A stretch of DNA of 64,000 nucleotides, taken from a virus. The stretch lies in IMG/VR virus record IMGVR_UViG_3300023296_001674; one strand, written 5' to 3'. A model generated the notes under the pieces. That model was given only the letters and a program-made list of their open reading frames with translations. It was not told the origin of the DNA and ran no database searches. This document shows positions 2,600-59,004 of this stretch, one piece after another (positions within the stretch are counted from its first letter, which is position 1; each line of letters opens with the position of its first letter). Both the position numbers and the translations under genes were made by a program.

Positions 2600-3508
2600 A
2601 TGGGTCGCGAAGTAAAACGGGTTGCATTAGATTTTAGTTGGCCCATCAATAGAACGTGGTATGGTTACGTGAAGCCAGATGATTTATATCCAACCAATTG
2701 TGATACATGTGATGGGACTGGCATGACAGACGATTATAGACAAATCAGTGAATCGTGGTATACACATCTTTGTCCTCCCGGTGAAGAAGGTTGGTCTGAT
2801 AAAATTACACAAGATGAAGTAGATGCCCTTGTTGAAAATAGGAGATTGATGGATTTCACGCATGAGTGGATTACATCTGAAACTGTCATTAAAATATCAA
2901 CCAAAGACGAAGTTATTATTCGTCTTGGTCTTGAGCCAATGGAAGACGATGATGAAGATGTGGATTATGTACAAAATTGGATTGAAAATGGATCGATTGA
3001 GTTATCTGACACTGGTGAGTATACCATCACGAGTGGATGGGTTAGACGTGAAGATCGTTACGTTCCGACTGCTGCCGAAGTAAATGAATGGTCAAAATCT
3101 GGAATGGGTCACGATTCATGCAATCGTTGGATTTGTGCAGAAACACGCGCCAAACGACTTGGCAAGTATGGTCACTGCACAGTGTGTGATGGTGATGGAT
3201 CGATTTTTAAGGATGCAGACCATGAAGCCGCGTATGATGCATGGATGGAACAAGACCCACGAGCGGGTGAAGGCTGGCAATTATGGGAAAACGTGTCAGA
3301 AGGTTCACCGCAAAGCCCCGTGTTTGCAACCAAAGAAGAATTATCAACATGGATGCAAAACAATGGCGATGGCAATAGCGGTGGTTATAGCAAAGAATCT
3401 GCTGACGCATTTATAAATCAAGGTTGGGCACCATCAATGATGATTATCAACGGAACGATGATGACTGGTGTTGATAGCGCTGCTGCATTACAAAAAGATA
3501 CCGTATAA
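2600..3508 (+). CDS. protein with two DnaJ-type CxxCxGxG zinc-finger motifs
   Basis: CDTCDGTG and CTVCDGDG motifs; RBS GGGAGA before ATG 2600. Confidence 0.55.
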   Translation: MGREVKRVALDFSWPINRTWYGYVKPDDLYPTNCDTCDGTGMTDDYRQISESWYTHLCPPGEEGWSDKITQDEVDALVENRRLMDFTHEWITSETVIKISTKDEVIIRLGLEPMEDDDEDVDYVQNWIENGSIELSDTGEYTITSGWVRREDRYVPTAAEVNEWSKSGMGHDSCNRWICAETRAKRLGKYGHCTVCDGDGSIFKDADHEAAYDAWMEQDPRAGEGWQLWENVSEGSPQSPVFATKEELSTWMQNNGDGNSGGYSKESADAFINQGWAPSMMIINGTMMTGVDSAAALQKDTV

Positions 3509-4882: not shown

Positions 4883-6088
4883 ATGCGCCAAGAATATGCA
4901 ATCGACATCGCAACCAATCCCGGCATTCATGCAATCGGCGTCATCGTCGACGTTTTGACGTTTACAAGCGACCAATATCACAACAGCGAAGACGGCGAAT
5001 CGCATTTAACGGATTCACTGTGGGATAATTTGTATCGGTTCTTACAGGTTACTGATCCAGTTAATAAGTATCTCATTGGCGTAGGCTCTGAAGTGCGCGG
5101 TGGGGCTGGTGTTCCATTGCCATATGTAATGCCTGGTTTAGATCAAGTTCACGAAGGCGATACCGTTAAATGGATTATGACTAATAATCTCATGGGTGCA
5201 ACCATTATCACAATGGATAAGATGGATGGCAACTCTGGACAAATAATTTATGACACCAACGGCAATCTTCAAATGGCATTTAGTCGTGGTTCAAGCACTG
5301 ATGGTCAAGATTTAACACGGCATTTCAAACGCATGAAAAATCTTCCCACTATTAATGTTGGCACCGATCTTCACACCAGTATAGCGGTTCGTGTTGAAGT
5401 TGAAATGAAAGAAGAAGTGTTTAATGATTTGAATGATCGGGGATTGATTAACAAGCGCAGTGGTGAAAAACAGAGTAATGCGAGAAATTACATCGGAGGA
5501 CAAATGAATTCCACCGAAGCAACGCAAATATTTTATGACAACGTTGATGTTATCGCATATGAGATTATGTTTCCGTTGATGGATACAAAAAAAGAAGAAC
5601 TTACCGCACTTGGTCTTTATGGCTTTACGGTTGTTAAATGGTCAGAACACATTGGTGGTACACTTGGTGATGATATGCTAACAGCCGCGCTTGAACAAGC
5701 ACATAAAACAACCCCTTGGGCGATTGATGGGTTTGTTATGATACCAAATGACCGCGCAGTTCGTGATGCAATTCCTGCACGCAAAGGAAGCAGCTTGAAT
5801 CCAGTACATACTAAAAAATTCAAGGTAGGGCAGGACGACAATGTTGCTGGAACGACAGTTATAAAAGTAGAATGGAAAGTATCTAAAGATGGATATTTAA
5901 AACCAACCGTATGCATTGATCCAGTTGATTTGGCAGGCGTTACAATATCAAAAGCAACGGGAATTAACGCTAAATATATATATGATAATAAAATTGGACC
6001 GGGTTCAAAAGTGTCAATAACACGAGCCGGTGATGTTATACCAAGGTTATTATCTAGTTCCCCGATGCCAGAACAAAATATGGACTAG
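4883..6088 (+). CDS. NAD+-dependent DNA ligase, N-terminal fragment (adenylation domain with KMDG lysine motif, plus OB fold)
   Basis: KMDG adenylation motif; OB-fold-like segment ...SITRAGDVIPRL; ends in TAG. Confidence 0.75.
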   Translation: MRQEYAIDIATNPGIHAIGVIVDVLTFTSDQYHNSEDGESHLTDSLWDNLYRFLQVTDPVNKYLIGVGSEVRGGAGVPLPYVMPGLDQVHEGDTVKWIMTNNLMGATIITMDKMDGNSGQIIYDTNGNLQMAFSRGSSTDGQDLTRHFKRMKNLPTINVGTDLHTSIAVRVEVEMKEEVFNDLNDRGLINKRSGEKQSNARNYIGGQMNSTEATQIFYDNVDVIAYEIMFPLMDTKKEELTALGLYGFTVVKWSEHIGGTLGDDMLTAALEQAHKTTPWAIDGFVMIPNDRAVRDAIPARKGSSLNPVHTKKFKVGQDDNVAGTTVIKVEWKVSKDGYLKPTVCIDPVDLAGVTISKATGINAKYIYDNKIGPGSKVSITRAGDVIPRLLSSSPMPEQNMD

Positions 6089-6132
6089 ATTTATCAAATG
6101 GCGACGTCATTCCGCAACTAAAGGAGCAATAA

Positions 6133-6951
6133 ATGAGCACCACTAACGAATATAATGATAATTATGATAAATGGTTTCATTCACAACTCGCTGAATTTGG
6201 CGAATATGAATGGTCTAAACCCAACTCTGATGGAAATCAAGTTGATTTGATTCTTGTTGATGTTGAAAATAGCGATGCTGCTAAAAAACAACAACTTATT
6301 GATTTTTTCTCAAAGTTGGGTGTTGAATTTCTTGCCCAAAAATCATTGATTAAATTATATGATGCAGGATTCAATATGCCGGAAGATATCATTAATGCAA
6401 CCGTTTCTGATATTCAATCAATTGTTGGCGAGGCGAATGGTCGCAAAGGAATGGCAAGCCTGAATGAAAAACTGAATCCAGTTGAACCATGGATGCTTGC
6501 AGGTGTTACCAAATATTTTGGGCGATCAATTGGTCGAAAGAAAATGAAAAAGATTTATGATGCTACTGGACATGTAAATGAAACATCAGTTTCAGAGTTA
6601 ATTAAAATTGATGGCCTCGAAATGAAGAGTGCTGAAAAAATTGTTGCTGGTTATGATGAATATGCTTCCTTCCTTACCCGCATCCATGATAAGTATACCA
6701 TCGCAGAGGTTCAAAATACGCCTATGGGTAGCGATTGGGAGAATCAGGTTGTGACATTCACTGGCTATCGTGATGCGGACGCACAAGCTAAAATCGAAGC
6801 ACAAGGTGGGCGTATTGGTAGCAGTGTATCCAGTAAGACTACATTGGTTGTTACGAAAGACCCTAATTCGACCAGTAGCAAAATTGTAAAAGCGAAAGAT
6901 TTGGGAATTGAAGTTATCGATCCCGTAGAACTTTATTCACGACTTAACTAA
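6133..6951 (+). CDS. NAD+-dependent DNA ligase, C-terminal fragment (HhH plus BRCT domain)
   Basis: BRCT-like VVTFTGYRDADAQAKIEAQGGRIGSSVSSKTTLVVTKDP...; lies in a different reading frame from the upstream part. Confidence 0.7.
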   Translation: MSTTNEYNDNYDKWFHSQLAEFGEYEWSKPNSDGNQVDLILVDVENSDAAKKQQLIDFFSKLGVEFLAQKSLIKLYDAGFNMPEDIINATVSDIQSIVGEANGRKGMASLNEKLNPVEPWMLAGVTKYFGRSIGRKKMKKIYDATGHVNETSVSELIKIDGLEMKSAEKIVAGYDEYASFLTRIHDKYTIAEVQNTPMGSDWENQVVTFTGYRDADAQAKIEAQGGRIGSSVSSKTTLVVTKDPNSTSSKIVKAKDLGIEVIDPVELYSRLN

Positions 6952-13173: not shown

Positions 13174-16100
13174 ATTTATCAATCCCATCAAAATCTATTT
13201 CACTTCCGTCTGATAATGTTAAACTTCCTGACATTTCTTCCGATGTTGGAAGATTGTTTGGATTGCTATCTGCCGTAAATGTTTCACCATCAACTGTTAA
13301 TGCCCACCCTTGTGTGCCTTCCATATTTAGTGTATCTGTTCCCTCGCCGCCCGATATCCAATCACCGCCACCAAATCCGTCGCCGCCTTCGCCACCGAAG
13401 ATAAACATATCATCGCCACCATTGCCCATTACGTGGTCATTAGCATCTGTTGCATCGTCGCTATCAAATGTATCATCTGCTTTTTTTCCTTTGTCTTTTC
13501 CATCTATTTCATTATATTCAGAACCGCCTTCACCACCCTCGCCGCCTTCACCACCATCTTTATCTTTTTTATCTTTACCTTTTCCACCTTCACCGCCTTC
13601 ACCGCCATGTCCATGCCCATGTGATCCACCTTCACCGCCTTCACCACCTTCATTGCCTTCAACGTCGATAATGGTCGTAGCGGTTCCGGTTCCACCTTCA
13701 CTGTCCACTATATTATATGTGAAACTATCTTCACCAGAAAATCCTTCATATGGCGTATAAGTCCATGTTCCATTTTCATTATCTATTATAATTCCATTTT
13801 CAGGATCGTCAATGCTGGTAATAGTTATAGTGTCGCCATCTAAATCTGTATCATTAGATAGCAAATCTTCAGAAGAAAACGTTATAGAATTATCATCATC
13901 AATATCAAATTCATCATCAACACCAAGAGGTGTGGTATTTCCTGTTTCATCTACTAACCACGTGGATGATTGTGTGTCAACAGATACAACAGATGCCGTA
14001 ACAGGTGTATCTCGTTCTATTTCTACTGTTCCATCTGAATACGTTAATGTGTTAACCGAAGTGTTTGATGTTTCTGTTGTTATGTCTGTAGTAGTTGTTT
14101 CTGTAAACACTCGATTAATCACAGTTGTTTTTGTTCCATCGTCATTTTCAACAATCGATTCATTATTTACAAATGTTATGGTTGATTCTGGTTCACTCGT
14201 TATAATATTTTCTTCTGTTTCTATGGTTGTAACAATTTCAGGATCAACATATTCGGTTTCGACATTAGTTAATGTTTCCGTTCGTGTATCTGAGGTTATT
14301 TCGCTATCAATGTTGGGTGTTCCATTTTCGACTTCAACCGTTCCGTCTGAATATGTTATTGTGCTGACGGGAGTTATCGTTGTGGTGGTTGTGGTTTCAG
14401 TCGCATATTCATTTGTGGTTGTTGTAGTAGTATCTATTTGTTCGCGGTTATTATCCGTATCGATAGTTGTATCACTTTCTATTATGTCGTTAGTTGTTTC
14501 CCATGTTTCATCGCCCACAACAGCATCGGTAGTGGTAACGTATTCAGTGGTTATTGTTGGTTCTTCATATGTAGTAACAATTTCGTCCGTGGTATCAACT
14601 CTTGATTCAGTTGTTGTATCTGCTGTAATAACAGGATCGTCCTGTTCAATTTCAACAGTTCCATCTGAATACGTAATGGTTGTTATTTGTGTGGTTGTGG
14701 TTGTGGTTGTTGTATCAGTTTCATAATTGTTTGTGGTTGTGGTCGTTGTATCTAATTGCTCACGGTTATTATCCAAATCATTTGAACGTGACACATCATC
14801 TTCGGTTGATGTTGAAATTAAGGTTTCATCGCCTACGACAACGTTGGTTGTTACTTCTTCTGACGTAACAATTTGTGGCTCTTCGTAAACAACGTTGGTA
14901 TCAGTTAACACTTCTTCTCTTGTATCGGTTGTAGGTTCAACTGTTTCAACTGGCGTTCCGTATTCTATTTCAACTGTTCCATCTGAATAAGTGATAGTGA
15001 TAACGGGTGTTGTTGTTACGGTTGTAGTTGTTATTGTATCATATGTATTTGTGGTTGTGTTGGTAGTATCTAATTGTTCGCGGTTATTATCCGTATCAAT
15101 AGTGCGAACAGTTTCTGATTCTGTTTCGGTGTTAGATAATATTTCATCGCTAACAACTACTGTTGTTTCATGCTCATAGGTTTCAACAATTTCAGGGTCT
15201 TCATTCGTAGTTATTGTTTCTGAAGTCACTTCATCGCGTGTTGATGTATCAGTGGTAGTTTCTATCGCTGGTGTGCCGTATTCTGTTTCTACAGTGCCGT
15301 CGCTGTAAGTTATGGTATGAACAGGCGTAGATGTGGTTGTGGTGGTTGTATCAACCGCATAGGTATCTGTGGTCGTTGTTGTCGTATCTACCCGTTCGTT
15401 ATTATATTCTGTTTCAATAGTTGTCACTACATTTTCTTCTGATGCTGTTCCAGTTTGATATTCATCGCCAATTGTATCCACTGATTGCACATCAGTCGTG
15501 ATTGTAATAACAGGCTCTTCTGTACTTGTGGATATATCAATTTCGCGGATTTCATCACGTGTTGATGTATCAATTTGAACTGTGTTATCGGTTGGTTCTG
15601 CGCGTTCGATTTCAATAGTTCCATCGCTATATGTAATGGTTTGAACTTCGATTGTTGTTGTTGTTTCCAATATGGGCGTTTCAAATGTATCTGTATATTC
15701 ACGCGTCACAGTAACTATTTCTTGATTATTATCTAAATCGTTAACACGCGATGATGAATCATAGAACTCTGTATTAGTTAAAGTTTCTTTGCCGTTGTGA
15801 AGGTCGGTTGAAATTTCATATGTGACAACAATGGTTGGTTCTTCATATGTGGTAACTATTTCATCGGCAATATCGGTTCTTGTTTCTGTATTTGTATTTT
15901 TTGTAATAGACGGATCGCCCTGTTCAATTTCAACTGTTCCATCTGAATAAGTGATAGTTATTACTGGTGTTATTGTGGTGGTAGTCGTTGTATCAATGGC
16001 ATAGTTATTCGTGGTAGTAGTTGTTGTATCTACTTGTTCACGATTGTTATCAGTGTCTATTATACGGTCAATTTCTGTCCCGGTTTCTGATCCAATTAGA

Positions 16101-36096: not shown

Positions 36097-36169
36097 GACA
36101 GTTATTGCAATATTATAGATTGGCTTAAAACAGCCATTCCAATCACATCTACCGTGGGGGGAGACAGTT
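36097..36169 (+). repeat. direct repeat copy 2 flanking the island
   Basis: Matches 34404-34478. Confidence 0.65.
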
Positions 36170-36931
36170 ATTTTTATTACCCTTTGACATATTGTCTTTA
36201 GCCCATAATGGCTGAAGATTTGTGTAATGCATCGCTTTATGCTGTTCATTTATATCCGATAAATCAAATGATGATAATGGAATAATATGATCTATATGCC
36301 AACCATCAGTAGCCCAGTTATCCCAAGACATCCCCACCGTAAATTGATTCTCTAAATGTTCCTTTAATGTAGCAATGTCCGTTCCAATCAATTTTAACGC
36401 AGATTTAGTCTTCTTAACCCCGCTATTACGTAAATACTTACCTAACGCATTTCTAAGATTAATACGCAGTTTAAAAAGTGGATCATTAGCATAGCGTTCC
36501 CTTCGAAGTTTATTCCGTATATCCCTTGTTTTACTAGCATATTTTTTGTCCCATCCAGACTTCAATTGTTTAAACTTTGAAGTTTTTGCGTAAGGAACCC
36601 TCCATATATCCCATGAACACTGCTTACAATACGTTTTTTTATCATAATGACACTTGCCAGAAAAATCACTCGGAAAACTATCTAAATCTTTTATAGTATC
36701 ACATTTACGACATTTTCTCTTTCCTTCGCTTTGTAGTATATGTAACTCTGATACATACTTTTTTTCTTCCATCAACTTTTCAGGGTCTTTGCTATTCTTT
36801 ATACTTACACACTGCTTGCAACTTCCCCTTAAATATGAAGGATGATCCCGTATACCTGCTGATGCATAACTGTCTAATGATAATTCCCGATTGCATGTTT
36901 TACATTTTTTCATTCGATTACAATAACACAC
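36149..36931 (-). CDS. HNH homing endonuclease with N-terminal CxxC zinc-finger repeats
   Basis: WHIDHIIPLSSF...NLQPLWAKDNMSKGNK. Confidence 0.75.
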   Translation of the reverse strand: MCYCNRMKKCKTCNRELSLDSYASAGIRDHPSYLRGSCKQCVSIKNSKDPEKLMEEKKYVSELHILQSEGKRKCRKCDTIKDLDSFPSDFSGKCHYDKKTYCKQCSWDIWRVPYAKTSKFKQLKSGWDKKYASKTRDIRNKLRRERYANDPLFKLRINLRNALGKYLRNSGVKKTKSALKLIGTDIATLKEHLENQFTVGMSWDNWATDGWHIDHIIPLSSFDLSDINEQHKAMHYTNLQPLWAKDNMSKGNKNNCLPPR

Positions 36932-36940
36932 TGGAGACAG

Positions 36941-37288
36941 TTATGTCAATCGGTCTAGGGGCTGACAGTTATACAGCGATGGTATATTTTGTTCAGTGCG
37001 ATTGCGTGATTTGTTATATGCAGTATCAAATTCTTTGATTACTTGTTCTAATGACATATCACCAAAATTATACCATTCACCACGTACTTGTATATGCCTA
37101 AAATAAAAATGCATCCAACGCTCTGCCCACTTACGAGTATACGTGTTGTGGACTTTGGATATACTTAGTTTTTCTGGATTGCCTGTTTGTAATGTGCTTA
37201 ATCTTTTAATAGATGATTTGGCTTCACCTATTTTATATAAACTGGTGCTACCATTACGAATAAGATATACATCACCAAATGCGATCAT
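36941..37288 (-). CDS. T5orf172 / GIY-YIG-like domain protein
   Basis: VYLIRNGSTSLYKIGEAKSSIKRLSTLQTGNP. Confidence 0.55.
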   Translation of the reverse strand: MIAFGDVYLIRNGSTSLYKIGEAKSSIKRLSTLQTGNPEKLSISKVHNTYTRKWAERWMHFYFRHIQVRGEWYNFGDMSLEQVIKEFDTAYNKSRNRTEQNIPSLYNCQPLDRLT

Positions 37289-37336
37289 TGGATATTCCTT
37301 CCAATCAATGTAGATACAGTATAACAGTTATTCAAA

Positions 37337-38647
37337 TTATGTCAATTGGTTTAGGGATAAATCAACTATTCTATTAACCATATTTTGTATATCAGAATCT
37401 ATTACATGAAACAAATACTCGTTTTCTAAATCTACATCTTTAGTTTTTTTAAGTAAGCCATCGTCAAAGGCTGATTGATTGCGCATAGATTTATAACCAC
37501 CAACACGCTCACGCATGTCATCAATCAACCTAGTGGTATCAAGGATACCATCTTCATAATATAGATTGATACCAAGATTATTCAAATATGTGTATATATC
37601 AACATCGATTGTTAACAAATCCATATAACCATCATACTTACGCCAATGATAGTTAAGTTGACGGTTGAAGTATAAATCATACTTACCGCTATCAATATCA
37701 TTATACACTTGTAATAAATCTTTATGTAAATCATTTAAATTACACGACGTTATTCTTTCAAATATATCTTTATCAAATGTATTATCATCCATATTATGCA
37801 ATGGTGACATTTTATGATATATGGTGCATATAACATTACCAGTACTACCATCAACAGATATATTATTGACATTGAAAAGAGGTGCACAATGTCTGTAATA
37901 TGTCCGCAAATAAACAGTTATTTTATTGTCTTTGATTTCTATTCTAAAAAATGATGAAATTTTAAATAATTTACATAAATCATTATATATACATAGCATA
38001 TCAGCCGACATATTGGTGAACAAAGCATTAGTAAGATCAATGTCACACTTACGGATATAATTCCAAATGATTTGATTGTTATCTGATGTTAAATCATACA
38101 CGGCTGTATATTTTTTATCAGTCATAATAAAAATAGATGAATATAACCCATCGTTGTGGTTTAGGATGTTTTGTACATTTTTCATTATAGTAATAATTTT
38201 ATTTGATACAATATCGCGTGCTTGATGTAATAATTTATTATGTTTTCTAAATAGATCGCGTATACGAATGTATTCTATTTCTTCATTGGTTTTTTCTTTA
38301 TAAGTCCACTTTCCTGTAATTTTATGTTTATGTAATGATTTTTCCATGGCTATTCGTTCAGGTATGGATGCATTTAAAACTTTTTTAACAGCAATAGACA
38401 GCAATCCTGCATTAGACACATGAAACCATTCCTTTACTTTGATATCTTCGATGTGAAAATGAGAAAGTTGTGACTGTATTGCTTTTTCTGTTATTAGTGC
38501 ATCTTTTTCTGATCCAGTATATATTACTTTAAATGTGTCACCGGGACGATAATGATTATTACTTCTACTTTCTGGATTTGTGGTGATACCTGGAGTGACT
38601 TGTATTCCATTAGGATATTTTGTTTCATTGATGTATACGTAATGCAT
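37337..38647 (-). CDS. protein with an N-terminal T5orf172/GIY-YIG-like domain
   Basis: MHYVYINETKYPNGIQVTPGITTNPESR...; 436 aa. Confidence 0.55.
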   Translation of the reverse strand: MHYVYINETKYPNGIQVTPGITTNPESRSNNHYRPGDTFKVIYTGSEKDALITEKAIQSQLSHFHIEDIKVKEWFHVSNAGLLSIAVKKVLNASIPERIAMEKSLHKHKITGKWTYKEKTNEEIEYIRIRDLFRKHNKLLHQARDIVSNKIITIMKNVQNILNHNDGLYSSIFIMTDKKYTAVYDLTSDNNQIIWNYIRKCDIDLTNALFTNMSADMLCIYNDLCKLFKISSFFRIEIKDNKITVYLRTYYRHCAPLFNVNNISVDGSTGNVICTIYHKMSPLHNMDDNTFDKDIFERITSCNLNDLHKDLLQVYNDIDSGKYDLYFNRQLNYHWRKYDGYMDLLTIDVDIYTYLNNLGINLYYEDGILDTTRLIDDMRERVGGYKSMRNQSAFDDGLLKKTKDVDLENEYLFHVIDSDIQNMVNRIVDLSLNQLT

Positions 38648-38679
38648 GCTATAACCCTTTTATTATTGTTGCAGTCTAC

Positions 38680-38708
38680 AGTATAACACTTATTCAACCA
38701 GTGTCAAG
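38680..38708 (-). promoter_or_regulatory. leftward promoter (reverse complement TTGACA-N17-TATACT)
   Basis: Reverse complement of the plus-strand sequence acagtataacacttattcaaccagtgtcaag. Confidence 0.55.
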
Positions 38709-38755
38709 TCAGGTTTGGGGGCGAAGTGTAGGGGAGGGTGGAGATCGTGAGACAG

Positions 38756-39052
38756 TTATTTGGATGACGTTTCTTTTGTCATCGGATATTCATGCGATAA
38801 ATCAATAATTGATCCAGTATCGCCATCAGCCGTTATATAGGTTATCATATAAACTTCTTCATTAGGTCTATGAACAACATCATATGGAATAATATCATCT
38901 ACCGTGACAAATTGACGATCTTCACCAGTACCAACCAATATCCTATCACCAGGTTTATATGGTGTATTAAATAACGATTCCATTAATCCATCAAAAAAAT
39001 CATTCAACTCATTAGTTGACATATCCAGTAAACATTCATTGCCATCTTCCAT
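38756..39052 (-). CDS. small acidic hypothetical protein
   Basis: ORF with its own leftward promoter at 39081-39109. Confidence 0.45.
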   Translation of the reverse strand: MEDGNECLLDMSTNELNDFFDGLMESLFNTPYKPGDRILVGTGEDRQFVTVDDIIPYDVVHRPNEEVYMITYITADGDTGSIIDLSHEYPMTKETSSK

Positions 39053-39238
39053 GGTGCATTCCTTTCATTGGTTTAATTACAGTATAACACCTTGGGACAA
39101 TTATGTCAACGACCCACCAAATAAAAGAATAAATACTATTATAATAATGAATGTGTCGGGTTGTTTGCGCAACCCACGAAGTTCGAAGGATCGAAACTTC
39201 TAACACATTCAATAACTATTTATAGAAGGAATATCACA

Positions 39239-40261
39239 ATGACTAATGCACTCACAACTGAAGATTTCATTCAACGTTCTATAGAAGCGCATAAGCCTTA
39301 TCACGAACATTATGATTATAGCAAAGCGATCTATATCAAAACAACTAAAAAAATAACAATTACATGTAAGTTTCATGGCGACTTCGAAGTTATTGCTGCT
39401 ACCCATCTAGGTGGTGCACATTGCAATAAGTGTAATAAAATGATTAATTCCATAATAAAAGAAGAAAATATTAGATTGCAAAAAATCGCTAACAATTATG
39501 AAATACAAGAAAAAGCAAAGGATTTCTACAACCGTGTTGATGAACGATTTGGTAGATTCAATTATAGTAAGAGTGTATTTGAAAATATGTCAACACCCAT
39601 TATAATAAAATGCACTTGGCATGGCGAATTTGAACAAACACCAAGTGTTCATTTAAGCCACCTTACAGGCTGTCCTGAGTGTAATCAGTTAGTTGCCAAG
39701 TGGCGTAACGATAGAACTACCCCAGCGTTCATTAAAAAGGCGAGAAAGGTGCATGGATGGCTATATGAATATGATAAAGTAGAATTTATTGATAATAAAA
39801 CACCCATTACTATCATTTGCCCAGACCATGGTGTATTCAACCAAACACCATCGAATCACTTAAGGGGTGGAGGATGCCAAAAATGTGGCGGAAGGTTTGG
39901 GGCGAAAGAAACTGAATGGATAGAATATATGGAAGAACGTATAGGTTATTCACTGGTCACCGACCACACTACCTTAAAGATGGCTGATGGCAAAGTATAC
40001 TTCCCTGATGCATATGATCCTGACACTAAAACAGTATATGAATTCGATGGTGATTACTACCATGGCAATCCAAATAGATATGCACCTGATCAAACGAACT
40101 ATACATCAAAGAAAACCATGGGTGAGCTATATGAAGCCACTCTCAAGAAAAAATCGGATTTAGAAACCAATGGCTATACTGTTTTGTCCATATGGGAAAG
40201 CGAATGGGATGCATTCAAGACGACTTTACCTGATAGATTTCCTAATATCAAAGCAGCATAA
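39239..40261 (+). CDS. homing-endonuclease-like protein: 3 zinc-ribbon repeats plus a C-terminal Vsr/PD-(D/E)xK-like nuclease domain
   Basis: C(K/T)xHGxF..Q(T)PS.HL...C..C repeated three times; C-terminal VYEFDGDYYHGNP...VLSIWESEWD. Confidence 0.55.
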   Translation: MTNALTTEDFIQRSIEAHKPYHEHYDYSKAIYIKTTKKITITCKFHGDFEVIAATHLGGAHCNKCNKMINSIIKEENIRLQKIANNYEIQEKAKDFYNRVDERFGRFNYSKSVFENMSTPIIIKCTWHGEFEQTPSVHLSHLTGCPECNQLVAKWRNDRTTPAFIKKARKVHGWLYEYDKVEFIDNKTPITIICPDHGVFNQTPSNHLRGGGCQKCGGRFGAKETEWIEYMEERIGYSLVTDHTTLKMADGKVYFPDAYDPDTKTVYEFDGDYYHGNPNRYAPDQTNYTSKKTMGELYEATLKKKSDLETNGYTVLSIWESEWDAFKTTLPDRFPNIKAA

Positions 40262-40435
40262 AAAATAAGCCAAATAAAAAATTTATCGCGGACGAGAAGT
40301 CACCCTCATACCCGTACTGTAATAGTATAACGATCCTATAAGTGTAAGGTAACAGCCACATGTGAATATATTCCTAGGAATTTTTTTCTATGTGTCATAG
40401 GAATATATACTCACGTATAAATTATAGGTAAAAAA

Positions 40436-40874
40436 TCACAGTGTGACAGAATAAGTGCGCCAACTTTCATCACAGTGTGAATGAAACTGGAAAAATCATC
40501 ACAGTGTGTGCATTTTGGAACACGTGTTTTGCTCACAGTGTGATATTTACCCTCACAGTGTGATTTTTTATCCTCACAGTGTGATATTTGGAACGCTTAT
40601 CTGCTCACAGTGTGATATTTACCCTCACAGTGTGATTTTTTATCCTCACAGTGTGATATTTACCCTCACAGTGTGATATTTACCCTCACAGTGTGATTTT
40701 TTATCCTCACAGTGTGATATTTGGAACGCTTATCTGCTCACAGTGTGATTTTTTATCCTCACAGTGTGATATTTACCCTCACAGTGTGATTTTTTATCCT
40801 CACAGTGTGATATTTACCCTCACAGTGTGATTTTTTATCCTCACAGTGTGATATTTGGAACACACACTGTGATG
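40436..40874 (+). repeat. array of 18 direct repeats of the near-palindrome TCACAGTGTGA (units of 20, 21 or 31 bp) plus one inverted copy; candidate origin or protein-binding array
   Basis: Alternating unit types A (..atatttaccc), B (..attttttatcc) and C (..atatttggaacgcttatctgc); no spacers. Confidence 0.85.
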
Positions 40875-41134
40875 AATGTGAATTATTGAATAACTGTCTC
40901 CACCATGTTCCATAACTGTCTCCACACTAGATATAGTGGGTGTTAATGTGTAATATAGTTGCGCATTATAATTTCGTCATACACTCACAAAGTAGAACAC
41001 TTATAGAACAAAGGTAGTTTTGAATTTTCCATAACAGATGTTATGCGATTCTAACGGGGTAAACAGTGAACATAGGTGGAACATTTGTATCATACATAGT
41101 CCATATTGGTTTGATATGCATTATATATAATACA

Positions 41135-41163
41135 TTGTCATAAGTGTTATACTGTGATATAAT
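41135..41163 (+). promoter_or_regulatory. promoter TTGTCA-N17-TATAAT
   Basis: Upstream of 41169. Confidence 0.45.
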
Positions 41164-41168
41164 GTATC

Positions 41169-41384
41169 ATGGGATTAATACTGAATAGAATAGCGTATAG
41201 CAAAAATAATTGTTATAGGATAAATTACACATATAATGGAGATATGGTGTCCAATGATGGATGGGTTGAGATGTCTTTATTTACGTTTGGCAGGCAAGTT
41301 GAACACAATTGGATAACTATGGATATGTTATTGGATATGATCAACATTGATTATGAAGTATCTATAAGTGTGGCACAGTTATGA
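41169..41384 (+). CDS. small protein of the ...ISVAQL family
   Basis: Ends VSISVAQL; stop overlaps the repeat TGTGGCACAGTTATGAG. Confidence 0.5.
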   Translation: MGLILNRIAYSKNNCYRINYTYNGDMVSNDGWVEMSLFTFGRQVEHNWITMDMLLDMINIDYEVSISVAQL

Positions 41385-41722
41385 GAGATTTAACGGGTGA
41401 GATATTAAAAAGCATAGAGGAATTGATTAATACTACATTACCGGATACACCGGAACGCAAAAGGGTTTCTGCACTTGGTGATGAAATACTTGATACATTA
41501 AGAATTCATCATGATATTGTAACGACGGTATATATAGTGAAGACGTTATATATAAAGAAAGATAATGGTAAGTATATTGTCATCAATAAAATGTTTAATG
41601 GTACAATATGTATATATAAGTATGACACTATTCTTGACATAGTTAAGTTTGGTAAATTTGGATTAGATGAACTCATGAAAATGGATAACACATATGAAGA
41701 TTCGGTTGTGGCACAGTTATGA
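41381..41722 (+). CDS. small protein ending ...SVVAQL
   Basis: Start and stop both lie inside the junction repeat. Confidence 0.5.
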   Translation: MRDLTGEILKSIEELINTTLPDTPERKRVSALGDEILDTLRIHHDIVTTVYIVKTLYIKKDNGKYIVINKMFNGTICIYKYDTILDIVKFGKFGLDELMKMDNTYEDSVVAQL

Positions 41723-41871
41723 GACTACTTAATGAAGATCAATTGGAAGAACTTATGGATGCGATGATCAGGGATATGGTGGAGTATGAACTTACGGGTA
41801 TTGAGGTATTGTTTTGGATGATAGAAGAAATACCACAACTTGAAGCTATGGTATATATACGCAATGAATGA
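41719..41871 (+). CDS. small acidic protein
   Basis: Starts at the ATG of junction repeat copy 41706-41722. Confidence 0.4.
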   Translation: MRLLNEDQLEELMDAMIRDMVEYELTGIEVLFWMIEEIPQLEAMVYIRNE

Positions 41872-42166
41872 AGATGATCGATGGATGATACAGAAGACGA
41901 TGATACGGAAGGTTCCATTACCGGTTAAGCGTCGTGTTATGCCGACAGTTATTGCGAATAACGTAGTTGGTGTATCACCGATGGCTCCACCGGTTAAGTC
42001 TATTCATACGATGCGGTTTGAGGATTACAGTGATTTAGAGATGGAAGAGGTTTTATACCGGTTGATTTTTGGCGGGACGGGACATTATTATCAGGTATGG
42101 TTATTCAATGAAGTTATTGATAATGATATGATGGTTAACAGGGATGTATCAATTGGCAACGTTTGA
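41864..42166 (+). CDS. hypothetical protein
   Basis: ATGAATGA overlap with the upstream ORF. Confidence 0.4.
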   Translation: MNEDDRWMIQKTMIRKVPLPVKRRVMPTVIANNVVGVSPMAPPVKSIHTMRFEDYSDLEMEEVLYRLIFGGTGHYYQVWLFNEVIDNDMMVNRDVSIGNV

Positions 42167-42413
42167 TGTTAGTAAGTTTAATAAGTTTAGGGTGCCAGTT
42201 GATAACCATAAAGGTATGTTACATTCTGGTATAAATGTGTATACGAACCCGTATATAAGATTGTTATCATCGCGCAATGCGCCGATTGAAGATTTAATAA
42301 TAGTGATATTGAGAAATTCTATTGGTGTTGGTCAAGAAGCATTATTTAAACATATAAATCCACCGGTATTGGATAGCCATGTTACTATAGAACCCATAGG
42401 TGTTGATGAATAG
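42144..42413 (+). CDS. hypothetical protein
   Basis: ORF ends in TAG. Confidence 0.45.
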   Translation: MYQLATFDVSKFNKFRVPVDNHKGMLHSGINVYTNPYIRLLSSRNAPIEDLIIVILRNSIGVGQEALFKHINPPVLDSHVTIEPIGVDE

Positions 42414-42510
42414 GTCTTATGGGTTTCATAGGTCTTGAGCCATAGGTTTCATAGCATAGGTGCTATGGGTTTCATAGCATAGGTGCTATGGGTTTCATAG
42501 GAATAAAGCT
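42411..42510 (+). repeat. tandem CATAGG-containing repeats (two perfect 23-bp units, tagcataggtgctatgggtttca, plus degenerate copies)
   Basis: Hairpin-forming CCATAGGTGCTATGG also forms a terminator at 58898-58921. Confidence 0.6.
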
Positions 42511-42520
42511 ATAGGAGTTA

Positions 42521-42832
42521 TTGATGGCAATAAATGATAGCAAATTACGCGGGGTGATTAAGTATACTATAGTTACGGATGATGGAGGGAAACCGATGAC
42601 AAAGTTATTAGAAACTACTTGGGGAGAAGCCAAACGTGCATTAATGGAGGATCGTCGTTACACTGTCACTTATAAAGGATTTTCACATGTTGGTGACACT
42701 TATATAGATGCAATGTTACAATTAGTTCGATGGCGCAGTTTGGCGCGTGATGCTACTAATATGCATGAAGAACTGTTTGATATATTGAGTTCATATATAA
42801 TTGAACGGGATGTATCGATAAGTGTCTTATAG
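42521..42832 (+). CDS. hypothetical protein ending ...VSISVL
   Basis: 103-aa ORF. Confidence 0.5.
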   Translation: MMAINDSKLRGVIKYTIVTDDGGKPMTKLLETTWGEAKRALMEDRRYTVTYKGFSHVGDTYIDAMLQLVRWRSLARDATNMHEELFDILSSYIIERDVSISVL

Positions 42833-43665: not shown

Positions 43666-43905
43666 ATGTCTAAAGCTATTATATCGCATCGCGCCATTTC
43701 TGATATGTGTATTGGCATATTGAAGAATCAATCCAAGACGGCATTTACATTGGGCGAGTTCCAACAAGTGGCGGTTCCTATTATACAGACGGTGTTCCCT
43801 AACAACAACACTGTAAAGGATACGACACGTTATTCTTTACAGCAGTTACGCGACGCTGGTGTTGTTCGGTTTGTTGACGACGCTGGTATCTACAAAATTC
43901 TTTAA
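43666..43905 (+). CDS. small putative DNA-binding protein
   Basis: RBS AAGGAG; ORF of 79 aa. Confidence 0.5.
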   Translation: MSKAIISHRAISDMCIGILKNQSKTAFTLGEFQQVAVPIIQTVFPNNNTVKDTTRYSLQQLRDAGVVRFVDDAGIYKIL

Positions 43906-44499: not shown

Positions 44500-44658
44500 A
44501 TGTCACGATCACGGCGGAAAGTTAAAGATATCAAATGGCAGAAAGGGAAAGTGTGTCCTAAGTGTCGAAAGGGTAATTTGGTTGGTTGTGGTCAATCCAA
44601 GAAGAAAGGACACGAGAAGTGTGTTTTTTGTAGTGTTTGCAAGGTGGCTAATTTTTAA
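44500..44658 (+). CDS. small basic zinc-ribbon protein (CPKCRKG...CVFCSVC)
   Basis: RBS GAAAGGAA; 52 aa. Confidence 0.45.
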   Translation: MSRSRRKVKDIKWQKGKVCPKCRKGNLVGCGQSKKKGHEKCVFCSVCKVANF

Positions 44659-46104: not shown

Positions 46105-46638
46105 ATGAGTGATGATACGATAGACTTTCCGGGAACTACGTCTAAAGCTCCGTCGAATGATCATGGTCCAATTATTGATTATAATACATTGATTCGTGCT
46201 GCTCATTTGAATGTTGTTAAAGACGCGATTCAAATCGTTTCGGATACTGGTCCTGCTGAATTCTTTAATATCAATATTACTTATGATTTGATGCACCCTG
46301 ATTCGGTATCTGAAGAATGGTTGTGGAAGAAATATCCTGAGAAGATTACCATTATACTTAACAACCAATATGAAAACTTACACGTTGAGGACACTGGCTT
46401 TCGTGTCACCTTACATTTCGGTGGTTCTCCGGTTGCGTTGTTTGTTCCGTTTGATTCTATACTCAGTTATGTTGATATGGTTACGCGGGTTATGTTTTCG
46501 TTTGAAGACCCACATGCTAATGAACCAGTTGACAATCCATTTGAATCGGTTGATACGCCAGATATTAAATTGGTTCCTGATGCTGGCGCGGAAGTTATAT
46601 CGTTGGACGCATTTAGGGATAAGAATAAAAAGGATTGA
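46105..46638 (+). CDS. SspB-like protein (stringent starvation protein B / ClpXP adaptor fold)
   Basis: IILNNQYENLHVEDTGFRVTLHFGGSPVALFVPFDSILSYVD resembles the SspB core (..NIAPRAVGNLELANDEVRFNARFGGIPRQVSVPLAAVLAIY). Confidence 0.5.
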   Translation: MSDDTIDFPGTTSKAPSNDHGPIIDYNTLIRAAHLNVVKDAIQIVSDTGPAEFFNINITYDLMHPDSVSEEWLWKKYPEKITIILNNQYENLHVEDTGFRVTLHFGGSPVALFVPFDSILSYVDMVTRVMFSFEDPHANEPVDNPFESVDTPDIKLVPDAGAEVISLDAFRDKNKKD

Positions 46639-47453: not shown

Positions 47454-47720
47454 ATGAGCAAATTAAAAGAATACGTTGACATGAAAGTTAATTTTATGGC
47501 TAAGTTCAATGACCAGCGATTGATTGATGTTGACAATCTAACTGAGGCAGATGCAAGTCGTATCTATGCTTCATTGGATAATGATTTGTCGCCGGAAAAT
47601 CTTGAGCGTGATGGAGAAGCAACCCGCGCAGAGATTCGTGATAAAAAGGCTTTATTCACTGGAGCGATGTATGTACTTAACTCACTAGGGTTCGTGCATC
47701 CACAATCACGTTATGGCTGA
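47454..47720 (+). CDS. small hypothetical protein
   Basis: Leader TTGAAAGGAAATGTTATG. Confidence 0.5.
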   Translation: MSKLKEYVDMKVNFMAKFNDQRLIDVDNLTEADASRIYASLDNDLSPENLERDGEATRAEIRDKKALFTGAMYVLNSLGFVHPQSRYG

Positions 47721-48336
47721 AACACTTATACAGGAGAAACACGTGAACTTTTTTAAACGAGCGATTAAATACATCCGCCTCAAGTGGGCAATCATATCTT
47801 TAGATGGCGAGGCGATGGTTTCGTATGATCGTCTAATGGGTTTCGCTAGTGGCATGAGTGCCTCGATCAAAGAAGCCCAAGATGCACAAGAAAAAAACGC
47901 AATCGTTCGCGAGGAACTTGCCAAAGAAATGGATGAGGCGAGCGAAAAATTGATACGTGCAATGCGCGTACCCAATATTGTTCCCGATGATAATGTCATT
48001 TTTGATGAAAATGGATCACCAATTTATTTAGCGGTTAAACCACCTCGCCAAGGCGTGCCAGACATTGACACCACTGGTATGACCTTTGAAGAAATTGGTA
48101 AGGCGATTGATATTGAACATCATTCAATTGCGGCTCTTGGAACATACAATGGAAAAATGTATACGCAAAAACAGCGGGTTTTCTTACAGTTGACCAACTT
48201 GGGTTATGTCACCACCAACGACGCAAAGGTGATGGGTATCAAATGCCTAAGTGCGCGAATATGTGAACTGCGCCAAGATGGTATTGATATCATGACTCAG
48301 CCTGAAGACGGATATACTTCTTATCAATTAGTATAA
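47713..48336 (+). CDS. hypothetical protein; the C-terminus may be a winged-helix DNA-binding domain
   Basis: 207-aa ORF. Confidence 0.5.
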   Translation: MAETLIQEKHVNFFKRAIKYIRLKWAIISLDGEAMVSYDRLMGFASGMSASIKEAQDAQEKNAIVREELAKEMDEASEKLIRAMRVPNIVPDDNVIFDENGSPIYLAVKPPRQGVPDIDTTGMTFEEIGKAIDIEHHSIAALGTYNGKMYTQKQRVFLQLTNLGYVTTNDAKVMGIKCLSARICELRQDGIDIMTQPEDGYTSYQLV

Positions 48337-53925: not shown

Positions 53926-53950
53926 CATTGTGGAAACACTTGTTATATTA
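53922..53950 (+). promoter_or_regulatory. dedicated promoter TTGACA-N17-ATATTA placing the transcription start at the tRNA 5' end
   Basis: ggTTGACAttgtggaaacacttgttATATTA; overlaps the upstream stop codon. Confidence 0.55.
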
Positions 53951-53958
53951 GTAACATC

Positions 53959-54032
53959 GGGGGCATAGCTCAGTGGTAGAGCAGTGGGTTCTAAACCCTT
54001 TGTCGGGAGTTCGACTCTCCCTGCCCTCGCCA
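53959..54032 (+). tRNA. tRNA with anticodon CUA (amber suppressor, tRNA-Sup); the backbone looks tRNA-Trp/Gln-like with G73 and an encoded CCA end
   Basis: Cloverleaf folded by hand: 7-bp acceptor stem, D arm GCTC/GAGC, anticodon loop TTCTAAA with U33 and A37, T arm GGGAG-TTCGACT-CTCCC, ends GCCA. Confidence 0.8.
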
Positions 54033-58704: not shown

Positions 58705-58890
58705 ATGACATATTACAGTGATTATCCAAGTGTTCCAATTGGCGGGAGCAATCCTTATTATAAGTGTTCATATTGTGGCATATCTGATCCACAAATCAAT
58801 GGCACCCTTGAAGGGCATTATGAAGATTGTGAATATCGTATCATCAAAGAATTGGAACTACGCATCAAAGAATTAGAAGCAAACCCATAG
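58705..58890 (+). CDS. small Cys-containing protein
   Basis: RBS AAAGGAG. Confidence 0.5.
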   Translation: MTYYSDYPSVPIGGSNPYYKCSYCGISDPQINGTLEGHYEDCEYRIIKELELRIKELEANP

Positions 58891-58897
58891 CGTTCGA

Positions 58898-58921
58898 CCC
58901 ATAGGTGCTATGGGTTTTTTG
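58898..58921 (+). terminator. terminator hairpin CCCATAG-GTG-CTATGGG followed by TTTTTT
   Basis: Same hairpin motif as the repeats at 42411-42510. Confidence 0.6.
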
Positions 58922-58945
58922 CTATAGAACCTATAGAAATAGTTC

Positions 58946-58973
58946 TTGACAATTGGTTCAGTTAGTCTATAAT
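58946..58973 (+). promoter_or_regulatory. promoter TTGACA-N16-TATAAT
   Basis: tTTGACAattggttcagttagtcTATAAT. Confidence 0.6.
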
Positions 58974-59004
58974 ACCTTTATAACTTAAACGAAGGGAAAT
59001 ACAA

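Follow-up and report, generated by a model that had tools for sequence, protein, structure and literature searches.

An untranslated stretch of about 440 bases in a viral DNA of 64,000 nucleotides (IMG/VR virus record IMGVR_UViG_3300023296_001674; the whole stretch is called the window here) carries 19 copies of one 10-base palindrome, mostly two DNA turns apart. The window belongs to a metagenomic phage contig of 570,549 bp (ena:ERZ27315719 k141_202852). From the anatomy of this array we infer that it quite likely consists of successive sites bound by a dimeric, sequence-specific protein. More tentatively, it may be a phased docking array, most likely associated with a replication origin, for a dimeric and probably phage-encoded protein. 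Repeat arrays are familiar in the control regions of plasmids and phages; this one is unusually large and belongs to an undescribed megaphage lineage. To our knowledge, no origin, centromere or master control region has been mapped in a phage of more than 500 kb, and the array is a testable candidate for the first mapped cis-acting site of replication or organisation in a phage of this size, in an uncultivated lineage with relatives in ocean metagenomes. Its invariant 10-bp core could serve as bait for the binding protein, and the locus as a marker for read-depth replication profiling. If the array is merely an expanded operator or a satellite, the finding is an ordinary one.

Anatomy of the array

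On the plus strand between 40436 and 40851, the core TCACAGTGTGA occurs in 17 exact copies and one copy with a single mismatch, and one inverted copy is present at 40862. When both strands are counted at up to one mismatch, 36 matches are found, all within 40436–40872, against an expectation of 1.38 ± 1.25; none of 100 shuffles reached this number. At two mismatches, the extra matches outside the array are only scattered and at chance level, and no copy of TCACAGTGTGA exists outside the array in 81 kb, including 7.7 kb to the right of the window. The array consists of the following parts.

40435–40510, plus strand: three spaced leading copies of the core, exact at 40436 and 40470 and with one mismatch (TCACAGTGTGT) at 40499.
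40532–40861, plus strand: gapless block of 15 units (six A, six B, two C and one shortened C).
Unit A, 20 bp: CTCACAGTGTGATATTTACC, six copies.
Unit B, 21 bp: CTCACAGTGTGATTTTTTATC, six copies.
Unit C, 31 bp: CTCACAGTGTGATATTTGGAACGCTTATCTG, two copies and a last, shortened one.
40862–40872, minus strand: single inverted copy of the core, ACACACTGTGA on the plus strand and TCACAGTGTGT on the minus strand.

Every unit of the packed block begins with CTCACAGTGTGAT, and units of the same type are 100% identical. They are arranged in the order A B C A B A A B C B A B A B C′, with a higher-order repeat of 133 bp (2.5 copies, 95% matches). The linkers between cores are 9–20 bp long and exist in three versions only. 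The leading copies are 34 and 29 bp apart, embedded in otherwise unrelated sequence, and a further 34 bp separates the third of them from the first packed copy. Together with its flanks (40861–40875), the inverted copy matches the third leading copy (40496–40510) perfectly over 15 nt in inverted orientation. The original prediction, made from the letters of the window, had described 18 direct copies without spacers and an inverted copy at the end. The copies are there, one of them with a mismatch, but only the 15 of the block 40532–40861 are gapless, the leading three being spaced. Its A-B-C pattern exists as the 133-bp higher-order repeat and not as a strict cycle.

The 10-mer TCACAGTGTG is unchanged in 19 of 19 copies. 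Outside it, positions carry little or no information when the three unit types are counted once each. In the four copies beyond the packed block, 10 of 10 or 11 of 11 core bases are intact, and yet their flanks bear no resemblance to the array units. Because the core is kept in copies with unrelated flanks, it appears to be a binding site rather than the product of mere duplication.

The array lies in an untranslated gap of 907 bp (40262–41168), in which no gene is called in two independent look-ups of the source contig; the only open reading frames in the gap, of 41–56 aa, are read-throughs of the repeats. With these look-ups and the shuffle test, the array is non-coding and far beyond chance. 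Coding repeats and a known RNA were rejected on direct tests. A CRISPR array was also rejected, on the linkers of 9–20 bp in three versions only and the lack of a cas gene.

Copy number

In another sample, a contig of 1.6 kb (ERZ27315625) spans the whole gap and keeps the three leading copies and the inverted copy; its packed block has 7 units (A B C B A B C′) instead of 15, which is 8 fewer and makes 10+1 copies in total. This 7-unit form is either a real copy-number variant or a 133-bp repeat collapsed by the short-read assembler. The Logan assembly breaks within the array. Two whole-genome contigs, of 570,549 and 570,750 bp, differ by 201 bp, and another contig has one 23-bp unit fewer in a neighbouring array about 1.5 kb away. 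This second tandem array (42394–42500) has a period of 23 bp and consists of copies of the hairpin CCCATAGGTGCTATGGG with a T run behind it. This hairpin, with a consensus TTGACA-17-TATAAT promoter after it, recurs downstream of rIIB in the window (58890–58975) and in a relative at 70% identity (positions 13500–13625 of locus L129), and the two elements together are a family-wide terminator-plus-promoter cassette. An artefact of assembly was rejected as the source of the core array, since the array or its edge is present in three independent assemblies, although its exact copy number is uncertain in these short-read data.

Strict conservation of the copies had been taken as a sign of selection. 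The linkers are equally perfect, and their identity within unit types points to a recent build-up of the block by slippage or unequal exchange; together with the 8 units missing from the other assembly, this removes the argument.

Geometry and folding

Core-to-core spacings in the packed block are 20, 21 and 31 bp, close to 2, 2 and 3 turns of the helix. If one turn is taken as 10.25 bp, 15 of 15 packed cores are located within ±27 degrees of one face of the helix; with 10.5 bp they drift slowly round it. The leading copies are out of phase with the helix. This geometry, in which direct repeats lie two turns apart, the core has dyad symmetry, and further copies are spaced out or, in one case, inverted, is of the iteron, centromere or operator type; an iteron or binding array had been proposed originally.

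Predicted curvature, from a model whose wedge parameters were entered by hand, is moderate for the array, at the 9th percentile among 330-bp windows, and the segment 41101–41430 is the fourth most curved (overlapping 330-bp windows in 50-bp steps over the 64 kb). Within the latter, 41120–41160 is 80% AT; this is the only AT-rich stretch, about 40–60 bp at 75–80% AT, 250 bp to the right of the array. Folding z-scores of the array are strongly negative (−9.5 and −6.8), which is trivial since palindromic repeats pair with one another. Rfam gave no relevant structured-RNA match at E ≤ 1 over 36–46 kb.

The gene-free gap and its promoters

The surroundings of the array contain the following features.

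39081–39109, minus strand: consensus leftward promoter TTGACA-17-TATACT, for a 98-aa gene at 38756–39052.
39239–40261, plus strand: homing-endonuclease-like gene with three DUF723 zinc-ribbon modules, matching PHROG 'HNH endonuclease'.
40358–40416, no strand assigned: imperfect inverted repeat of 22 nt that contains ATTCCTAGGAAT and then seven T, just to the left of the first core.
40890–40925, plus strand: ATAACTGTCTCCAC in two direct copies 22 bp apart, adjoining the array on its right side.
41135–41163, plus strand: the region's best match to a sigma70-type promoter, TTGTCA-17-TATAAT with TG (11/12 matches).
41169–41384, plus strand: first rightward gene, 71 aa, no family match.

The array had been placed at the point of strand switch, downstream of the homing-endonuclease-like gene. 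It lies to the right of this gene, between it and the early block, which are both on the plus strand; gene direction switches 1.2 kb farther left, at about 39.05–39.24 kb, where the leftward promoter at 39081–39109 marks the actual divergence point of transcription. The endonuclease gene, which matches genes with a homing-endonuclease annotation, looks inserted into a divergent gap. No array accompanies the other DUF723 genes of this genome, so that the array is not an accessory of this family. The inverted repeat at 40358–40416, which a terminator scan did not pick up, may be a weak terminator of the endonuclease gene. To the right, several dozen small plus-strand genes (about 40 called before rIIA) continue to rIIA and rIIB at 55–58.6 kb.

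Intergenic DNA of the window is rich in consensus TTGACA-16/17-TATAAT promoters, often with TGT before the −10 hexamer, so that transcription of the early genes presumably depends on a host sigma70-type polymerase. Two scans found dozens of such promoters elsewhere in the window and none within 40450–40880. The array itself as a cluster of sigma70-type promoters was rejected, there being no −35/−10 pair at 16–18 bp inside it. A sigma54 reading of the C unit (TGGAAC...TCTGC) was rejected by eye, its GG-to-GC distance being one base too long. At the left end, the first core (40436) overlaps the −35-like hexamer of a weak leftward promoter-like site (40449–40421). At the right end, the second copy of ATAACTGTCTCCAC, a sequence that elsewhere in this phage is the spacer right after TTGACA in promoters, is followed 18 nt on by TATAGT (40932–40937), a possible −10 hexamer, and the two might act as a promoter (40913–40937). 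The promoter-like site at 41135–41163 ends 5 nt before the ATG at 41169. The extended −10 sequence TGTGATATAAT is present three more times in the window, in two cases right before the start of a called gene.

The 12-mer TAACTGTCTCCA has 17 occurrences at up to two mismatches, against 4.25 expected. Its sites include 29143, 34518, 36159, 36932, 38747, 40891 and 40913, the last two directly beside the array, and it represents either a promoter spacer that comes right after TTGACA or the antisense of GGAGACAGTTATG, with which paralogous genes begin.

Search for a binding protein

Binder candidates were sought with Pfam and PHROG on about 50 proteins and with precomputed Pfam assignments for all called genes in about 81 kb around the array. 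Near the array, these gave no Rep, DnaA-like, helicase-loader or primase family, and in the whole of the 81 kb no ParA, ParM, TubZ, ParB or ribbon-helix-helix (RHH) family. Proteins within several kb of the array belong to no recognisable replication, partition or classical regulator family. Many neighbouring proteins are without any family, which leaves room for a novel initiator. The nearest candidate DNA-binders are the products of three genes.

43666–43905: 79-aa DpnI_C-like winged helix.
44500–44658: basic 52-aa zinc ribbon.
47713–48336: 207-aa HTH_39 protein.

GC skew had been suggested as a check for an origin. Strongly negative values extend to 37.5 kb, the skew is then close to zero as far as 41 kb, and past 41 kb it is strongly positive. 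This broad change of sign tracks gene orientation, and the skew also flips at about 12 kb and partly at 34.5–36 kb, together with gene direction, so that the check carries no independent information on replication.

Occurrence of the core elsewhere

A search of other genomes for the 11-mer had also been proposed. It occurs in metagenomes, in GTDB genomes and in one plasmid, but a homologous array was not found in any collection searched, and a paired-core pattern had no match among 2.9 million viral contigs of IMG/VR. In the literature searched, the 11-mer was not found in any relevant context. The metagenome and genome matches described below were selected by the motif query itself. In JGI metagenomes, the pattern gave 83 loci, about 12 of which have long arrays of the same 11-mer. 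These are mostly of low coding density, some with microsatellites, and they have no protein in common with the window; they are taken for unrelated, mostly eukaryote-like satellites.

Of 35 loci in GTDB genomes, 19 are copies of a dispersed element in a single metagenome-assembled genome (MAG), Alloprevotella sp. RGIG5064. The element is 55–70 bp long and has exactly three TTCACA(G/C)TGTGAA palindromes 21 bp apart with unique flanks, except that one locus (L033) has two exact cores only. It is intergenic in every gene arrangement, including convergent ones, and is on this ground REP-like rather than an operator; without an Rfam match, it looks like an undescribed REP-like element. Promoters and ribosome-binding sites in the phylum of Alloprevotella are unlike those of this phage. 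Related elements of 3–4 copies are present in MAGs of Caccomonas, Prevotella and Bacteroides, beside a conserved ACTTTGTCGCCCTG. The remaining GTDB loci are short arrays in mixed chromosomal contexts, a few of them, counted as leads only, upstream of a vapBC-like pair or of regulator genes. In Mesorhizobium sp. STM 4661 (positions 5995–6060 of locus L012), a vapB/PIN-like toxin-antitoxin pair is preceded, at a distance of about 160 bp, by at least five copies of the 20-bp repeat GGGGATCACAGTGTGACGCA. None of the GTDB loci points to a named binder. The same palindrome at a spacing of 19–22 bp in short arrays of unrelated bacteria leaves room for a widespread, undescribed class of binding proteins.

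The sole match in the plasmid database is an iteron array of Corynebacterium that shares the 14-mer ATATTTACCCTCAC with the junction of A units, probably by chance. In this Corynebacterium aurimucosum plasmid (NZ_CP068167; positions 2900–3100 of locus L172), an unannotated iteron origin has seven copies of the 22-bp repeat GCGCATATTTACCCTCACCGCT, three spaced and four packed (2900–3085), followed by a perfect DnaA box TTATCCACA.

Role of the array

In the mechanism that we propose, a dimeric DNA-binding protein, probably encoded by the phage, would recognise the invariant dyad-symmetric core TCACA-G-TGTG(A) and fill the 15 packed sites side by side, two turns apart and roughly on one face of the helix. 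A cooperative nucleoprotein complex would be built in the untranslated 0.9 kb that precede the rightward early block, bracketed by the spaced leading copies and the inverted copy. This complex would mark and organise the replication origin of the phage, on the model of the lambda O-some or of repeat-rich origins between divergent units, and early transcription nearby and the AT-rich curved stretch at 41.10–41.17 kb may help opening. Copy number would be set by slippage or unequal exchange and would not be critical.

The origin role is ranked first because the period and direct orientation of the repeats are iteron-like and the iterons of lambda are likewise palindromic and dimer-bound, and because the array is in a gene-free gap of the divergent early zone, followed by an AT-rich curved stretch and a strong promoter. 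The array also falls inside the region of diverging transcription and changing GC-skew sign. In the lambda origin, the repeats are dyad-symmetric, phased and bound by O dimers, and work with nearby transcription; there, however, four repeats are located inside the initiator gene, whereas about 19 copies occupy a gene-free gap here. Some small lytic phages, for example those of the lactococcal c2 type, have repeat-rich origins between divergent early and late units, and oriE of T4 has short iterons. These resemble the array in belonging to lytic phages and in having direct and inverted repeats in a non-coding gap at the divergence, but they are much smaller and their function has been shown by experiment. 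Among plasmids, iterons are 17–22-bp direct repeats, and the cooperativity of initiator binding depends on helical phasing (PMC4980987). The array, with 15 packed and four further copies, likewise comprises at least three phased direct repeats of about 17–22 bp in non-coding DNA. As in theta-plasmid iteron origins (RK2, R6K, P1, F; PMC4980987), the direct repeats are about 20–22 bp long, or two turns, and spaced copies accompany a packed block with extra or inverted copies nearby. The Corynebacterium origin of NZ_CP068167 has the same layout of spaced copies and then a packed block.

Several points weigh against an origin. Plasmid iterons are asymmetric, are bound by Rep as a monomer and lie beside a rep gene, DnaA boxes and an AT-rich element; the core here is palindromic, and neither a rep gene nor a true DnaA box nor a long AT-rich element was found with it. 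DnaA-box-like matches amount to six at 8/9 only, which are made by the junction of the B unit and break the CACA core. In the scan of AT content and curvature, a long AT-rich unwinding element abutting the repeats was not found. No initiator, helicase-loader or DNA-binding gene was found adjoining the array, nor any Rep-type family in the 81 kb, and GC skew, because it follows gene orientation, gives no independent evidence of an origin. The linkers are as perfectly kept within a unit type as the core, and the size of the array is possibly the result of a recent, neutral expansion. In the relatives identified through rIIA, the comparison covers the genes around rIIA; a corresponding array would lie more than 10 kb upstream of that gene. 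The number of sites, at least 18 (15+4 copies), exceeds the 2–7 iterons of each plasmid origin (PMC4980987).

It is possible, if unlikely, that the array controls early transcription instead: a phage repressor or activator would coat it and control the promoters alongside (the possible one at 40913–40937, the strong one at 41135–41163 and the weak leftward one at 40449–40421), or would be titrated by it as a timing sink. The array is 60 bp from the possible −10 hexamer at 40932–40937 and 260 bp from the strongest promoter of the region, its first core overlaps the −35-like hexamer of the leftward site, and the right half of the core with the A/C linker (TGTGATAT) equals the first 8 nt of the extended −10 TGTGATATAAT. 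The equivalent divergent gap in more distant relatives is an early-promoter cluster. Against this, the bulk of the repeats is 100–600 bp away from the promoters, no adjacent regulator gene was found, and none of the other promoters of the window contains the core; 15 contiguous sites are, moreover, far above any bacterial or phage operator known to us. A somewhat smaller chance is given to a neutral minisatellite, in which one or a few functional palindromes, or none, have been amplified by slippage or unequal exchange and the array itself has no function. The complete identity of same-type units including their linkers, the 133-bp higher-order repeat and the 7 packed units in the assembly of the other sample are as expected of a minisatellite, as are the loss of one 23-bp unit from the unrelated tandem array 1.5 kb off and the many unrelated metagenomic satellites with the same 11-mer. 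Neutral decay, however, would not keep the core of four outside copies in unrelated flanks, the core is palindromic, and helix phase is held across three unit lengths.

Improbable, too, is a centromere-like site, where a centromere-binding protein would coat the repeats and couple the genome to a motor of the ParA, ParM or tubulin type. Gapless repeats of about 20 bp with a symmetric core upstream of an operon are typical of centromeres of types Ib, II and III. Such gapless tandem repeats are found in parC of R1 and pSK41 and in sopC of F, where a dimeric protein coats them into a higher-order complex and a change of copy number is tolerated; the array is a repeated array of putative binding sites of this kind, and the variation between assemblies fits such tolerance. 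On arrays like these, RHH centromere-binding proteins assemble into extended or superhelical complexes (PMC3074162). Partition genes normally adjoin the centromere, however, and none was found in the 81 kb; the genome also has hallmarks of a lytic phage (rIIA/rIIB and many homing endonucleases). A similarly small probability is assigned to two other readings. In one, the array is a centromere or anchoring handle for a phage positioning system encoded elsewhere, through which the half-megabase genome would be physically organised in the cell; in the other, it is a high-capacity decoy for a host dimeric DNA-binding protein (a regulator or defence sensor), which would be soaked up once the early region has entered. 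Very improbable is a signal for packaging or injection, either a pac- or cos-like site for the small terminase or a stop signal for DNA entry like the repeat-rich region of T5. Small terminases use repeated, phased sites, and repeat-rich non-coding regions occur at such signals, but no terminase or structural genes were found nearby, and the array is internal to the contig, amid early-type genes with host-type promoters. Hardly credible at all are sites for a host regulator of the CRP/FNR type, although the pentamers TCACA and TGTGA carry the letters of CRP half-sites and had been read as such. This family requires TGTGA-N6-TCACA; in the array the pentamers are reversed, with TCACA-N1-TGTGA within the unit and TGTGA-N9/N10-TCACA between units, and the CRP-type motif is withdrawn.

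The phage genome and its relatives

By its content, the genome appears to be that of a very large phage of lytic type. The same sequence is present in three further assemblies of 0.2–1 Mb and in fragments from other samples, and megablast and blastn against 50,697 phage records gave no nucleotide match. The window encodes rIIA and rIIB and an NAD-dependent DNA ligase split into two adjacent genes (4883–6951), one of 401 aa with the adenylation and OB domains and one of 272 aa with HhH and BRCT. A class II tRNA synthetase and Thg1 are encoded just left of the window, and a UvrD helicase just right of it. Ribosome-binding sites of the AAGGA/GGAG type precede about half of the genes. The sole tRNA of the window (53959–54032, plus strand) has the anticodon CTA and is an amber suppressor (tRNA-Pyl according to ARAGORN), which hints that TAG may be partly recoded in this genome. 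It has its own consensus promoter (−10 at 53944) and is located just upstream of rIIA.

The closest relatives in rIIA are 46–73% identical. Their contigs measure 24–257 kb, one coming from a Tara Oceans assembly, and have a conserved gene order around rIIA. Deposited rIIA sequences match at about 30% identity at best, and the marine megaphage Mar_Mega_1 (PMC9723777) is not among the close relatives. As alternative anchors, the SspB-like neighbour had no homologue except itself, and a search with the closer DUF1281_C gene did not return the rIIA relatives. More distant rIIA phages have promoter clusters or nothing comparable at the equivalent place. In two smaller ones (positions 5560–6940 of locus L133 and 770–1990 of locus L134), the divergent gap upstream of the early block contains 3–4 repeated cassettes of a short hairpin GGCAAAnTTTGCC followed by TTGACA, an early-promoter cluster and not an iteron-like array.

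Homing-endonuclease-like genes are numerous in this phage genome. Four of them lie within 4 kb (36149–40261), to the left of the array; besides the DUF723 gene next to it, they are the following.

36149–36931: EndoVII/HNH-like gene.
36941–37288 and 37337–38647: T5orf172/MUG113 genes.

Further DUF723, HNH_5 and NUMOD3 genes are present just beyond the edges of the window.

In the rightward block, the first gene has TATAAT 5 nt before its ATG and no ribosome-binding site (41158–41171), an arrangement that represents either a leaderless mRNA or a true start codon further downstream. Four small early proteins (41169–41384, 41381–41722, 41840–42166 and 42524–42832) have similar C-terminal tails, reading ...VSISVAQL, ...DSVVAQL, ...VSIGNV and ...VSISVL, and a homologue of SspB, the ClpX adaptor, is encoded at 46105–46638, 4 kb from these genes. 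A 100-aa early protein (41864–42166, plus strand) matches about the first 45 residues of the major capsid family of T4 Gp23 (Pfam, 3.5e-07; PHROG 'major head protein').

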